64,000 nt of DNA from Escherichia coli (GTDB lineage Bacteria > Pseudomonadota > Gammaproteobacteria > Enterobacterales > Enterobacteriaceae): NCBI RefSeq assembly GCF_024502345.1, contig NZ_JALDNN010000001.1; one strand, written 5' to 3'. The notes under the pieces were generated by a model. It did not search any database. It saw only the letters and a program-made list of their open reading frames with translations, and was not told the origin of the DNA. Both the position numbers and the translations under genes were made by a program. Position 1 is the first letter of the stretch. The number at the start of each line of letters is the position of its first letter. This document shows positions 13,744 to 20,174 of this stretch, piece by piece.

Positions 13744-14265
13744 ATGGCAGAGAAACGCAATATCTTTCTGGTTGGGCCTATGGGTGCCGGAAAAAGCACT
13801 ATTGGGCGCCAGTTAGCTCAACAACTCAATATGGAATTTTACGATTCCGATCAAGAGATTGAGAAACGAACCGGAGCTGATGTGGGCTGGGTTTTCGATT
13901 TAGAAGGCGAAGAAGGCTTCCGCGATCGCGAAGAAAAGGTCATCAATGAGTTGACCGAGAAACAGGGTATTGTGCTGGCTACTGGCGGCGGCTCTGTGAA
14001 ATCCCGTGAAACGCGTAACCGTCTTTCCGCTCGTGGCGTTGTCGTTTATCTTGAAACGACCATCGAAAAGCAACTTGCACGCACGCAGCGTGATAAAAAA
14101 CGCCCGTTGCTGCACGTTGAAACACCGCCGCGTGAAGTTCTGGAAGCGTTGGCCAATGAACGCAATCCGCTGTATGAAGAGATTGCCGACGTGACCATTC
14201 GTACTGATGATCAAAGCGCTAAAGTGGTTGCAAACCAGATTATTCACATGCTGGAAAGCAACTAA
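13744..14265 (+). CDS. aroK: Shikimate kinase I
   Basis: ORF 13543..14265; ATG at 13744 gives [25 protein letters not shown]... with Walker A; 173 aa. Confidence 0.93.
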
Positions 14266-14321
14266 TTCTGGCTTTATATACACTCGTCTGCGGGTACAGT
14301 AATTAAGGTGGATGTCGCGTT

Positions 14322-15410
14322 ATGGAGAGGATTGTCGTTACTCTCGGGGAACGTAGTTACCCAATTACCATCGCATCTGGTTTGTTTAATGAACCAGCTT
14401 CATTCTTACCGCTGAAATCGGGCGAGCAGGTCATGTTGGTCACCAACGAAACCCTGGCTCCTCTGTATCTCGATAAGGTCCGCGGCGTACTTGAACAGGC
14501 GGGTGTTAACGTCGATAGCGTTACCCTCCCTGACGGCGAGCAGTATAAAAGCCTGGCTGTACTCGATACCGTCTTTACGGCGTTGTTACAAAAGCCGCAT
14601 GGTCGCGATACTACGCTGGTGGCGCTTGGCGGCGGCGTAGTGGGCGATCTGACCGGCTTCGCGGCGGCGAGTTATCAGCGCGGTGTTCGTTTCATTCAAG
14701 TCCCGACGACGTTACTGTCGCAGGTCGATTCCTCCGTTGGCGGCAAAACTGCGGTCAACCATCCCCTCGGTAAAAACATGATTGGCGCGTTCTACCAGCC
14801 TGCTTCAGTGGTGGTGGATCTCGACTGTCTGAAAACGCTTCCCCCGCGTGAGTTAGCGTCGGGGCTGGCAGAAGTCATCAAATACGGCATTATTCTTGAC
14901 GGTGCGTTTTTTAACTGGCTGGAAGAGAATCTGGATGCGTTGTTGCGTCTGGACGGTCCGGCAATGGCGTACTGTATTCGCCGTTGTTGTGAACTGAAGT
15001 CAGAAGTTGTCGCCGCCGACGAGCGCGAAACCGGGTTACGTGCTTTACTGAATCTGGGACACACCTTTGGTCATGCCATTGAAGCTGAAATGGGGTATGG
15101 CAATTGGTTACATGGTGAAGCGGTCGCTGCGGGTATGGTGATGGCGGCGCGGACGTCGGAACGTCTCGGGCAGTTTAGTTCTGCCGAAACGCAGCGTATT
15201 ATAACCCTGCTCACGCGGGCTGGGTTACCGGTCAATGGGCCGCGCGAAATGTCCGCGCAGGCGTATTTACCGCATATGCTGCGTGACAAGAAAGTCCTTG
15301 CGGGAGAGATGCGCTTAATTCTTCCGTTGGCAATTGGTAAGAGTGAAGTTCGCAGCGGCGTTTCGCACGAGCTTGTTCTTAACGCCATTGCCGATTGTCA
15401 ATCAGCGTAA
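14322..15410 (+). CDS. aroB: 3-dehydroquinate synthase
   Basis: 362-aa [25 protein letters not shown]...; NAD-binding GGGVVGD motif. Confidence 0.95.
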
Positions 15411-15501
15411 CAACAAGAAAGGTCAGGCCGCTTATCAAGCGGTCTATTAGCTTCAGGTTAATTGCAACGTGGTAAGCATTAACCTTTTAGTGGGGTGTTA
15501 A

Positions 15502-16788
15502 ATGGATGAATTCAAACCAGAAGACGAGCTGAAACCCGATCCCAGCGATCGTCGTACTGGTCGTTCTCGTCAATCTTCTGAACGTTCTGAGCGTACTGAA
15601 CGTGGCGAACCGCAGATCAATTTTGATGATATTGAACTTGATGACACTGACGATCGCCGTCCGACTCGTGCGCAAAAAGAGCGCAATGAGGAACCGGAAA
15701 TCGAAGAAGAAATTGACGAATCCGAAGATGAAACCGTGGATGAAGAGCGCGTAGAGCGTCGTCCGCGTAAGCGCAAAAAAGCAGCCAGTAAACCCGCTTC
15801 TCGTCAGTATATGATGATGGGCGTCGGCATTCTGGTTCTACTGCTGTTGATCATCGGTATCGGTTCTGCGCTAAAAGCCCCCTCGACCACTTCCAGCGAT
15901 CAAACCGCGTCTGGCGAGAAGAGTATTGATCTTGCTGGCAATGCGACCGATCAGGCGAATGGCGTGCAGCCAGCGCCGGGAACCACGTCTGCGGAAAATA
16001 CTCAGCAGGATGTTTCTCTGCCACCGATCTCTTCTACGCCGACTCAAGGGCAAACCCCGGCGGCAACGGATGGTCAACAACGTGTTGAAGTGCAGGGTGA
16101 CCTGAACAATGCGCTGACCCAGCCACAAAATCAGCAACAGTTGAACAATGTGGCGGTCAATTCCACATTGCCGACCGAACCCGCGACTGTCGCGCCTGTT
16201 CGCAATGGCAATGCATCCCGTGAAACGGCGAAAACGCAAACCGCTGAACGTCCGGCCACTACGCGTCCAGCTCGCCAGCAGGCAGTGATTGAACCGAAAA
16301 AACCGCAAGCAACCGTGAAAACGGAGCCGAAGCCGGTAGCACAGACGCCGAAGCGTACTGAACCAGCTGCCCCTGTGGCGAGCACGAAGGCACCGGCTGC
16401 GACTTCTACGCCAGCACCAAAAGAGACGGCGACTACGGCTCCAGTACAGACGGCATCCCCGGCGCAAACCACGGCAACACCAGCCGCTGGAGGGAAGACC
16501 GCAGGTAATGTTGGTTCGTTGAAATCGGCACCGTCCAGCCATTACACTCTGCAGCTGAGCAGTTCCTCTAACTACGACAACCTGAACGGTTGGGCGAAGA
16601 AAGAGAATCTGAAAAACTACGTTGTCTATGAAACGACGCGTAATGGTCAGCCGTGGTATGTCCTGGTTTCTGGCGTGTACGCTTCGAAAGAAGAGGCGAA
16701 AAAAGCGGTATCTACATTGCCAGCAGATGTTCAGGCCAAAAACCCGTGGGCGAAACCGCTGCGTCAGGTACAGGCCGATCTGAAGTAA
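15502..16788 (+). CDS. damX: Cell-division protein DamX (SPOR domain)
   Basis: 428-aa ORF: acidic N-terminus, one TM segment, long P/T/A/Q-rich linker, C-terminal SPOR-like domain. Confidence 0.93.
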
Positions 16789-16894
16789 TCAAGGTTATCT
16801 CCCGCAATGGTTTATCGTTGCGGGAGTTGCCTGAAGCGCTGGATGCTGTCGGAGCTTTCTCCACAGCCGGAGAAGGTGTAATTAGTTAGTCAGC

Positions 16895-17731
16895 ATGAAG
16901 AAAAATCGCGCTTTTTTGAAGTGGGCAGGGGGCAAGTATCCCCTGCTTGATGATATTAAACGGCATTTGCCCAAGGGCGAATGTCTGGTTGAGCCTTTTG
17001 TAGGTGCCGGGTCGGTGTTTCTCAACACCGACTTTTCTCGTTATATCCTTGCCGATATCAATAGCGACCTGATCAGTCTCTATAACATTGTGAAGATGCG
17101 TACTGATGAGTACGTACAGGCCGCACGCGAGCTGTTTGTTCCCGAAACAAATTGCGCCGAGGTTTACTATCAGTTCCGCGAAGAGTTCAACAAAAGCCAG
17201 GATCCGTTCCGTCGGGCGGTACTGTTTTTATATTTGAACCGCTACGGTTACAACGGCCTGTGTCGTTACAATCTGCGCGGTGAGTTTAACGTGCCGTTTG
17301 GCCGCTACAAAAAACCCTATTTCCCGGAAGCAGAGTTGTATCACTTCGCTGAAAAAGCGCAGAATGCCTTTTTCTATTGTGAGTCTTACGCCGATAGCAT
17401 GGCGCGCGCAGATGATGCATCCGTCGTCTATTGCGATCCGCCTTATGCACCGCTGTCTGCGACCGCCAACTTTACGGCGTATCACACAAACAGTTTTACG
17501 CTTGAACAACAAGCGCATCTGGCGGAGATCGCCGAAGGTCTGGTTGATCGCCATATTCCTGTGCTGATCTCCAATCACGATACGATGTTAACGCGTGAGT
17601 GGTATCAGCGCGCAAAATTGCATGTCGTCAAAGTTCGACGCAGTATAAGCAGCAACGGCGGCACACGTAAAAAGGTGGACGAACTGCTGGCTTTGTACAA
17701 ACCAGGAGTCGTTTCACCCGCGAAAAAATAA
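16895..17731 (+). CDS. dam: DNA adenine methyltransferase (GATC)
   Basis: 278-aa [24 protein letters not shown]...; catalytic DPPY motif ([12 protein letters not shown]). Confidence 0.96.
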
Positions 17732-17748
17732 TTCTCAAGGAGAAGCGG

Positions 17749-18426
17749 ATGAAACAGTATTTGATTGCCCCCTCAATTCTGTCGGCTGATTTTGCCCGCC
17801 TGGGTGAAGATACCGCAAAAGCCCTGGCAGCTGGCGCTGATGTCGTGCATTTTGACGTCATGGATAACCACTATGTTCCCAATCTGACGATTGGGCCAAT
17901 GGTGCTGAAATCCTTGCGTAACTACGGCATTACCGCCCCTATCGACGTACACCTGATGGTGAAACCTGTCGATCGCATTGTGCCTGATTTCGCTGCCGCT
18001 GGTGCCAGCATCATTACCTTTCATCCAGAAGCCTCCGAGCATGTTGACCGCACGCTGCAACTGATTAAAGAAAATGGCTGTAAAGCGGGACTGGTATTTA
18101 ACCCGGCGACACCGCTGAGCTATCTGGATTACGTGATGGATAAGCTGGATGTGATCCTGCTGATGTCCGTCAATCCTGGTTTCGGCGGTCAGTCGTTCAT
18201 TCCTCAAACACTGGATAAACTGCGCGAAGTACGTCGTCGTATCGACGAGTCTGGCTTTGACATTCGTCTGGAAGTAGACGGTGGCGTGAAGGTGAACAAC
18301 ATTGGCGAAATCGCTGCGGCGGGCGCGGATATGTTCGTCGCCGGTTCGGCAATCTTCGACCAGCCAGACTACAAAAAAGTCATTGATGAAATGCGCAGTG
18401 AACTGGCAAAGGTAAGTCATGAATAA
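17749..18426 (+). CDS. rpe: Ribulose-phosphate 3-epimerase
   Basis: 225-aa [24 protein letters not shown]... Confidence 0.95.
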
Positions 18427-19177
18427 GTTTGAAGATATTCGCGGCGTCGCTTTTGATCTTGATGGTACGCTGGTCGACAGTGCTCCCGGTCTTGCTGCTG
18501 CGGTAGATATGGCGCTGTATGCGCTGGAGTTGCCCATCGCAGGTGAAGAACGCGTTATTACCTGGATTGGTAACGGCGCAGATGTTCTGATGGAGCGCGC
18601 ATTGACCTGGGCGCGTCAGGAACGTGCGACTCAGCGTAAAACAATGGGTAAACCGCCCGTTGATGACGACATTCCGGCAGAAGAACAGGTACGTATTCTG
18701 CGTAAACTGTTCGATCGCTACTATGGCGAGGTTGCCGAAGAGGGGACGTTTTTGTTCCCGCACGTTGCCGATACGTTGGGCGCGTTGCAGGCTAAAGGCC
18801 TGCCGCTAGGCCTGGTCACCAACAAACCGACGCCGTTCGTCGCGCCGCTGCTCGAAGCCTTAGATATTGCCAAATACTTTAGCGTGGTTATCGGCGGCGA
18901 TGATGTGAAAAACAAAAAACCGCATCCGGACCCGCTGTTACTGGTGGCTGAGCGGATGGGAATTGCCTCACAAGAGATGCTGTTTGTCGGCGACTCACGC
19001 AATGATATTCAGGCGGCAAAAGCGGCAGGTTGCCCATCAGTTGGCTTAACCTACGGATATAACTACGGCGAGGCTATCGATCTCAGCCAGCCTGATGTAA
19101 TTTATCAGTCTATAAATGACCTTCTGCCCGCATTAGGGCTTCCGCATAGCGAAAATCAGGAATCGAAAAATGACTAA
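18419..19177 (+). CDS. gph: Phosphoglycolate phosphatase (HAD family)
   Basis: 252-aa ORF with HAD motif I ([12 protein letters not shown]); 8-nt overlap with rpe. Confidence 0.94.
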
Positions 19178-20174
19178 GCCCATCGTTTTTAGTGGCGCAC
19201 AGCCCTCAGGTGAATTGACCATTGGTAACTACATGGGTGCGCTGCGTCAGTGGGTAAACATGCAGGATGACTACCATTGCATTTACTGTATCGTTGACCA
19301 ACACGCGATCACCGTGCGCCAGGATGCACAGAAGCTGCGTAAAGCGACGCTGGATACGCTGGCCTTGTATCTGGCTTGTGGTATCGATCCTGAGAAAAGC
19401 ACCATTTTTGTTCAGTCCCACGTACCAGAACATGCGCAGTTAGGCTGGGCACTGAACTGCTATACCTACTTCGGCGAACTGAGCCGCATGACCCAGTTTA
19501 AAGATAAATCTGCGCGTTATGCCGAGAACATCAACGCTGGTCTGTTTGACTATCCGGTGCTGATGGCTGCGGACATCCTGCTGTATCAAACTAATCTGGT
19601 ACCGGTGGGTGAAGACCAGAAACAGCACCTGGAACTGAGTCGCGATATCGCCCAGCGTTTCAACGCGCTGTATGGCGAGATCTTTAAGGTGCCGGAGCCG
19701 TTTATTCCGAAATCTGGCGCGCGCGTAATGTCGCTGCTGGAGCCGACCAAGAAGATGTCCAAGTCTGACGATAACCGCAATAACGTTATCGGCCTGCTGG
19801 AAGATCCGAAATCGGTAGTGAAGAAAATCAAACGCGCGGTCACTGACTCCGACGAGCCGCCGGTAGTTCGCTACGATGTGCAGAACAAAGCGGGCGTTTC
19901 CAACCTGCTGGATATCCTTTCTGCGGTAACGGGCCAGAGCATCCCAGAACTGGAAAAACAGTTCGAAGGCAAGATGTATGGTCATCTGAAAGGTGAAGTG
20001 GCTGATGCCGTTTCCGGTATGCTGACTGAATTGCAGGAACGCTATCACCGTTTCCGCAACGATGAAGCCTTCCTGCAACAGGTGATGAAAGACGGCGCAG
20101 AAAAAGCCAGTGTACACGCTTCCCGTACGCTGAAAGCGGTGTACGAAGCGATTGGTTTTGTGGCGAAGCCGTAA
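19170..20174 (+). CDS. trpS: Tryptophanyl-tRNA synthetase
   Basis: 334-aa ORF; class I HIGH-type (TIGNYMG) and KMSKS motifs. Confidence 0.96.

Follow-up and report, generated by a model that had tools for sequence, protein, structure and literature searches.

Stable hairpins that lack a U-tract have been documented at the 3' end of stabilised cistrons (Dar & Sorek 2018, PMC5927463), in a study where the dam operon was among those analysed, after removal of operons with intergenic terminator motifs or internal promoters. Palindromes of the REP/BIME kind are also found between the genes of enterobacterial operons and can stabilise the upstream mRNA, and the RNase III hairpins of rpsO-pnp and phage T7 R1.1 are intercistronic stems with internal loops. 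The amount of Dam methylase affects the timing of replication, mismatch repair and epigenetic switches, and dam itself is expressed at a low level. Any element lying directly upstream of dam therefore merits a check. Here we describe one such element, a hairpin in the damX-dam spacer that we call H1, in a stretch of 64,000 nucleotides of Escherichia coli DNA (hereafter, the window). Our results show that H1 is a real, stable RNA hairpin.

The spacer is internal to an operon transcribed in the order aroK-aroB-damX-dam-rpe-gph-trpS. In the ORF list of the window, damX occupies 15502..16788 on the + strand (RefSeq annotation 'cell division protein DamX'), with its TAA stop at 16786-16788 (+), and dam occupies 16895..17731 (+; 'adenine-specific DNA-methyltransferase'); the K-12 RefSeq annotation places nothing between the two genes. 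The intervening sequence has two parts. The first is a slot of variable length that runs from the damX stop to the conserved leader of dam (16789..16835, +) and that in E. coli is a 47-nt insert folding as one closed hairpin. The second is the near-invariant dam leader (16836..16894, +), which is not part of the hairpin. E. coli is the organism of the window, and a 251-nt query around the site found a match in 5425 of 5426 complete E. coli genomes. A single genome was without a match to the damX-dam junction, one had two places matching the query, and one copy was on a plasmid record.

H1 was described in a first-pass annotation of this DNA as a perfect 9-bp stem with a 10-nt spacer at 16799-16826, and this holds: the arms, CTCCCGCAA (16799-16807) and TTGCGGGAG (16818-16826), are 9 nt each and 100% complementary, with 10 nt between them. 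Its placement in the damX-dam spacer is equally correct, since the hairpin begins 10 nt past the damX stop and lies 68 nt ahead of the dam ATG (16895). When folded as RNA, the stem is extended by a U16808-G16817 pair and by a G-C pair (G16809), that is, to 11 bp closing a 6-nt loop. The resulting 5' arm (CTCCCGCAATG) spans 16799..16809 (+), the loop (GTTTAT), which is polymorphic in E. coli, 16810..16815 (+), and the 3' arm (CGTTGCGGGAG) 16816..16826 (+). The free energy of this structure is -19.5 kcal/mol, compared with -7.1 +/- 2.2 kcal/mol for shuffled sequences (z -5.67; 0/200 shuffles as good), and its pair probabilities in a 401-nt context are 0.98-1.0. In the minimum-free-energy fold, a second helix, weaker than H1 (pair probabilities 0.2-0.9), pairs 16789..16795 (+) with 16829..16834 (+) and closes the entire 47-nt insert. 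The total structure therefore amounts to ~17 bp with internal loops, 11 bp from H1 and 6 bp from this outer helix.

The + strand folds better than the - strand, both in E. coli (-25.0 vs -18.2 kcal/mol) and in Citrobacter (-19.0 vs -8.7 kcal/mol), because of G-U pairs. This strand specificity implies that the structure matters, if at all, in the damX-dam mRNA. Past the stem, the + strand reads TTGCCTGAAG and the - strand ATAACCTTGA, and neither contains a T-run. An intrinsic terminator is rejected for both strands, as the stem has no U-tract behind it in either direction. The earlier judgement that the hairpin, lacking a U-tract, is unlikely to be a simple terminator was thus sound; a terminator scan was likewise silent on both strands, and the dam operon was retained by the terminator filter of PMC5927463.

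A 9-bp inverted repeat is not rare in 64 kb. The window contains 29 nested perfect repeats of this length (~15 loci, mostly terminator-like), compared with 3.1 +/- 2.4 in dinucleotide shuffles, and H1 is one of 23 + strand loci at <= -19.5 kcal/mol, which places it in the top 0.2% of 38-nt windows. The case for something more than chance therefore rests on the conservation of pairing in related genera, and not on the stem alone. H1 is present in single copy, at one place per genome in the 5425 E. coli genomes even at E<=10, and this rules out a repeated or mobile element. Rfam covariance models run on positions 14000-20000 of the window at E<=10 yielded nothing except a chance HIV-1_SL4 match at 19234, and the spacers of six other genera had no match either. 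A full-text literature search returned nothing on a hairpin in the damX-dam spacer.

To delimit the range of H1 we compared the dam locus across 80 Enterobacteriaceae species. Slot lengths fall into three groups, of 5-10 nt (44 species), 17-21 nt (18) and 47-126 nt (the remaining 18); H1 is absent, the slot being only 5-21 nt long, in 62/80 species (in Enterobacter it is the 8-nt spacer TGTTTAAA). Within this sample H1 was found only in Escherichia (four species besides the window), in Intestinirhabdus and in seven species of the Citrobacter freundii group, and in diverged form in Salmonella. The form carried by Intestinirhabdus and the Citrobacter freundii group is longer than that of Escherichia, and Salmonella enterica subsp. 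arizonae has a diverged, expanded form of 121 nt folding at -51.8 kcal/mol (L006, 2321-2441). Similarity between the E. coli insert and those of Intestinirhabdus and Citrobacter reaches z 5.3-6.1; the Salmonella insert scores z 5.7 against Intestinirhabdus and just 1.1 against E. coli directly. Since most Enterobacteriaceae are without H1 and yet the 59-nt dam leader is nearly invariant across the 80 species, H1 cannot belong to the general control of dam.

The same slot holds strong hairpins different from H1 in Phytobacter (64 nt; L014/L018/L025, 2378-2441), P. massiliensis (126 nt; L028, 2316-2441) and Kluyvera georgiana (58 nt; L076, 2384-2441), none of them followed by a T-run. An outer TTGCCTGAA motif is common to Phytobacter and E. 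coli (z 4.0) and hints at an older outer palindrome into which differing inner sequences were built. An outer CAGGC...GCCTGAA-like palindrome is common to several of the slot hairpins, and the slot therefore seems to grow nested hairpins.

Where H1 is present, its pairing is kept. In an alignment of 12 distinct sequences, pairing is retained at 98.3% over the 10 inner pairs that they share, compared with 31-46% in slid controls, and an independent RNAalifold prediction gives the same helix. The closing pair is C-G in E. coli, U-A in other Escherichia and G-C in Citrobacter and Intestinirhabdus (four sequences each). Between Escherichia species the stem has changed at 2/22 positions, which together form one compensated pair, and the insert outside the stem at 3-5/25 positions (12-20%), the divergence at 4-fold sites being 15-29%; non-stem positions of the insert evolve at a roughly neutral rate. 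The outer helix retains every pair in the 8 Escherichia sequences, whereas in Citrobacter and Intestinirhabdus it does not. Within E. coli, the haplotype of the window is the reference (2975/5425 genomes; -19.5 kcal/mol), and 809/5425 genomes carry a loop change, T16811G (-20.3 kcal/mol). A G16817A haplotype turns the U-G pair into U-A (-19.9 kcal/mol), and a G16817A + A16825C haplotype, found in 438/5425 genomes (Nissle 1917 and the type strain, ATCC 11775, among them), has the second base pair broken (-15.4 kcal/mol). Taken over the Escherichia, Citrobacter freundii and Intestinirhabdus group, in which pairing is maintained, the structure is constrained, but loosely, and the independent evolutionary events are few.

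The reading that we favour, to which we give a probability of roughly 35%, is that H1 is a stem-loop that is transcribed and read through, inserted in one clade and held in its fold by weak selection on the mRNA, most likely with a passive role. RNA polymerase would pass H1, between the damX and dam cistrons, without stopping; the insertion is specific to Escherichia, Intestinirhabdus and the Citrobacter freundii group, Salmonella having a diverged form; and selection on the + strand RNA would maintain the pairing. H1 would make the 47 additional nucleotides compact, as a closed hairpin marking where the damX cistron ends on its 3' side, and there it could be at most a modest brake on 3'->5' exonucleases; it would also prevent the insert from mispairing with the conserved dam leader. 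We infer this role as a barrier or insulator, and also its small size. H1 would then neither halt transcription nor set Dam levels. This reading draws on the stability of the stem in context, its position just past a stop codon inside an operon, the retained pairing, the strand preference and the slow change of the stem; it has against it the lack of an entry for H1 in published lists of 3' ends and of differential decay (see below), the short slot of 62/80 species and the E. coli haplotype with the second pair broken.

A possible, if somewhat doubtful, alternative is that H1 is an inert palindromic insertion, ancestral to the Escherichia-Salmonella-Citrobacter group, which persists because it is harmless and which owes the renewal of its symmetry to template-switch mutation and not to selection on RNA. 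Template-switch (quasi-palindrome) mutation can indeed yield compensated pairs in DNA palindromes without any selection on RNA. Several of the observations above fit such an origin: H1 is confined to a single clade, most genera having an empty slot, the other hairpins found there in Phytobacter, P. massiliensis and Kluyvera suggest a site tolerant of insertions, non-stem positions change near the neutral rate, alleles that break a pair segregate in E. coli, and neither Term-seq nor a decay screen gave a signal at H1 (see below). The comparison between E. coli and Citrobacter speaks for selection on the RNA instead. Indeed, despite a divergence of 43% at the 4-fold sites of dam, the 20 shared stem positions show 5 changes, none of which breaks a pair. 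Furthermore, two of the pairs have gone from C-G to U-G in Citrobacter, and a further one alternates between U-G and U-A; the two C->T changes, held as G-U in all seven Citrobacter, fit pairing in RNA and not symmetry in DNA, and they make the - strand fold poorly.

The dam leader, and not H1, is the strongly constrained part of the spacer, with 0/59 differences at 16836-16894 among Escherichia species compared with 15-29% at 4-fold sites. It has no Rfam match. The leader can form two mutually exclusive hairpins, both using CUCC 16859-16862: hairpin one, GCUGUCGGAG-CUUU-CUCCACAGC (16845-16867, -10.8 kcal/mol), and hairpin two, GCUUUCUCC-ACAGCC-GGAGAAGGU (16854-16877, -11.9 kcal/mol), which dominates at equilibrium. 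Column by column, no covariation was found for either of them, since there is too little variation in the region and the register is shifted in the divergent lineages. Inspection by eye shows register-shifted compensation for hairpin one in Atlantibacter subterranea (L046) and in a group of three loci (L074/L077/L081). The leader also contains a possible 12-codon ORF, from an ATG at 16843 to a TAA at 16879-16881 (MLSELSPQPEKV), and TAATTAGTTAG (16879-16889) holds stops in all three frames.

These features of the leader bear on another explanation, namely that H1 gates ribosome traffic, either looping out the 47 nt so that a termination-reinitiation relay from damX through the leader ORF to dam can work, or damping that relay. 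The arrangement of the locus is suggestive in this respect: the damX stop precedes a conserved start-like codon by 15-17 nt in most genera, this codon (ATG, GTG or TTG) is found at the position of 16843 in 81/81 sequences, the ORF usually ends 13 nt (or 5-9 nt) before dam, stops in all three frames lie at 16879-16889, the dam ATG has no purine-rich Shine-Dalgarno within the 12 nt upstream, and most of the longer slot inserts fold with both ends paired. We nonetheless consider this role improbable. Frameshifts abolish the conservation of the leader peptide, and in several species the ORF is cut short or left open; it lacks a Shine-Dalgarno of its own and does not appear in the small-ORF list obtained by ribosome profiling (Stringer 2021); the conservation of the leader could be equally well explained by RNA structure or by another signal; and nothing ties H1 directly to translation. 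A broader version of the same idea, which we hold to be more improbable still, is that slot, invariant leader and SD-less dam ATG together form a termination-reinitiation relay that sets a low level of Dam, the slot hairpins being structured spacers under selection. If so, ribosomes leaving damX would restart on the ~12-codon ORF (16843-16881) and then on dam, and the slot hairpins of different genera would loop out the inserted RNA or tune the efficiency of the relay in a lineage-specific manner.

We then turned to published transcript data, in which H1 corresponds to K-12 coordinates 3515982-3516009. Adams et al. 2021 (PMC7815308) provide curated Term-seq 3' ends for three growth conditions; their thresholded lists contain no 3' end at K-12 35159xx-35160xx, and no Rho termination region of that study falls there either. 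A Term-seq 3' end is listed inside damX, at K-12 3516762 (-), that is, window ~16046 (+) (PMC7815308). As for mRNA decay, damX is neither among the 47 differentially decaying operons (Table S6) nor among the Term-seq sites of Dar & Sorek 2018 (PMC5927463), and the damX-dam pair is not flagged at the 2-fold differential-decay threshold of that study. A quantification of DamX protein exists, at ~100 units (Esquerre 2015 supplement); we found no entry for dam there. The first-pass annotation had proposed a site of RNase processing or stabilisation, or an attenuator of dam relative to the upstream genes, and had named the absence of transcript ends or differential abundance at H1 as refuting. The published lists support none of these proposals and give that outcome: they show no 3' end, no differential-decay flag for damX-dam and no Rho termination region, with the proviso that these are look-ups in threshold-limited lists and not a dedicated experiment. 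Since the lists are limited by their thresholds, a small effect of H1 is compatible with them.

A sigma-70-like site, TTGAAA-18-TACACT, was detected by a promoter scan at 16519-16548 (+), in the 3' part of damX, and is the sole promoter-like site of the + strand near dam. A promoter within damX is mentioned in PMC4981707, and the site at 16519-16548 may be that promoter. Transcripts starting from it would carry H1 in their 5' leader.

With these data in hand, the explanations that attribute a stronger activity to H1 can be weighed. One is that an endonuclease processes the mRNA at H1, either RNase III cutting the stem or RNase E cutting beside it, and so separates the damX segment from that of dam. 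A structure of ~17 bp broken by internal loops, as obtained here when the outer helix is included, resembles some RNase III substrates. The uninterrupted helix is, however, of just 11 bp, and the lack of a listed 3' end and of a differential-decay flag further reduces this explanation to a quite unlikely one. Less likely again, to the point of being hardly tenable, is that H1 acts as a transcription attenuator or partial terminator that lowers dam relative to damX. A GC-rich stem directly upstream of a low-expressed gene invites this thought, but the stem has no U-tract, no Term-seq 3' end or Rho termination region is listed at it, the operon passed a screen that excluded intergenic terminators (PMC5927463), and the essential trpS lies downstream in the same operon. 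Finally, that a dimeric regulator uses the palindrome as its DNA operator, as the perfect 9-bp inverted repeat might suggest, is the least credible of all and is unlikely because the spacing of the arms varies (4-6 nt in Escherichia, ~13 nt in Citrobacter and Intestinirhabdus, roughly 85 nt in Salmonella) and the Citrobacter arms are complementary only if G-U is allowed, and the promoter scan found no promoter-like site overlapping H1.

A second hairpin lies inside dam, at 17009-17046 (+), over codons ~39-50, and reads GGGTCGGTGTT-TCTC-AACACCGACTT followed by TTTCTCGTTATAT. The hairpin proper (17009-17034) has a 9-bp perfect core and is followed by TTTTCTCGTTAT; it is the sole terminator-like call near the start of dam. 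It is 91.7% paired across 65 distinct Enterobacteriaceae sequences, and three of its pairs covary at synonymous third positions; double changes are counted in 45 cells, compared with 10.5 +/- 6.2 in shuffles (0/500 reach this value) and 1-10 in slid controls. Kosakonia and Phytobacter have lost its lower stem. The in-dam hairpin may be a translation-sensitive attenuator for dam-rpe-gph-trpS, and the idea of an attenuator near dam would fit it better than H1. Given that H1 has no detectable effect in the 3'-end and decay data searched, it is unlikely to explain the low level of Dam, and the places to look for post-transcriptional control of dam are the 59-nt leader and the covarying in-dam hairpin rather than H1.

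H1 can finally be set against the systems with which we began. Like REP/BIME elements, it is an intergenic palindrome in an enterobacterial operon; unlike them, for they are present in many copies, it occurs once per genome, and by eye it does not resemble the REP consensus. Like the RNase III hairpins of rpsO-pnp and phage T7 R1.1, it is intercistronic and comes with internal loops, but its continuous helix (11 bp) is far shorter than theirs. It resembles intrinsic terminators in its GC-rich hairpin of comparable strength (11 bp, -19.5 kcal/mol), placed where a gene ends; in contrast to them, it has neither a U-tract nor a mapped 3' end, and transcription must go on into dam, rpe, gph and trpS. 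H1 thus fails the definitions of terminator and REP outright. The protective hairpins of the malE-malF type (PMC5927463) come closer, H1 being, as they are, stable, free of a U-tract, located just past the upstream stop and on the transcribed strand of a polycistronic mRNA. It departs from them in having no listed 3' end immediately downstream and no listed difference of at least 2-fold in stability and abundance between the neighbouring genes, and, contrary to most published cases of protective hairpin (PMC5927463), it is not conserved in Klebsiella or Enterobacter. We do not file H1 in the protective class, because neither that 3' end nor a difference in stability of at least 2-fold was found for it in the published lists. 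H1 is an ordinary stem-loop, specific to its lineage and lying between two genes of the same operon, and the protective intercistronic hairpins without U-tract are, by analogy, the kind that it would work most like.
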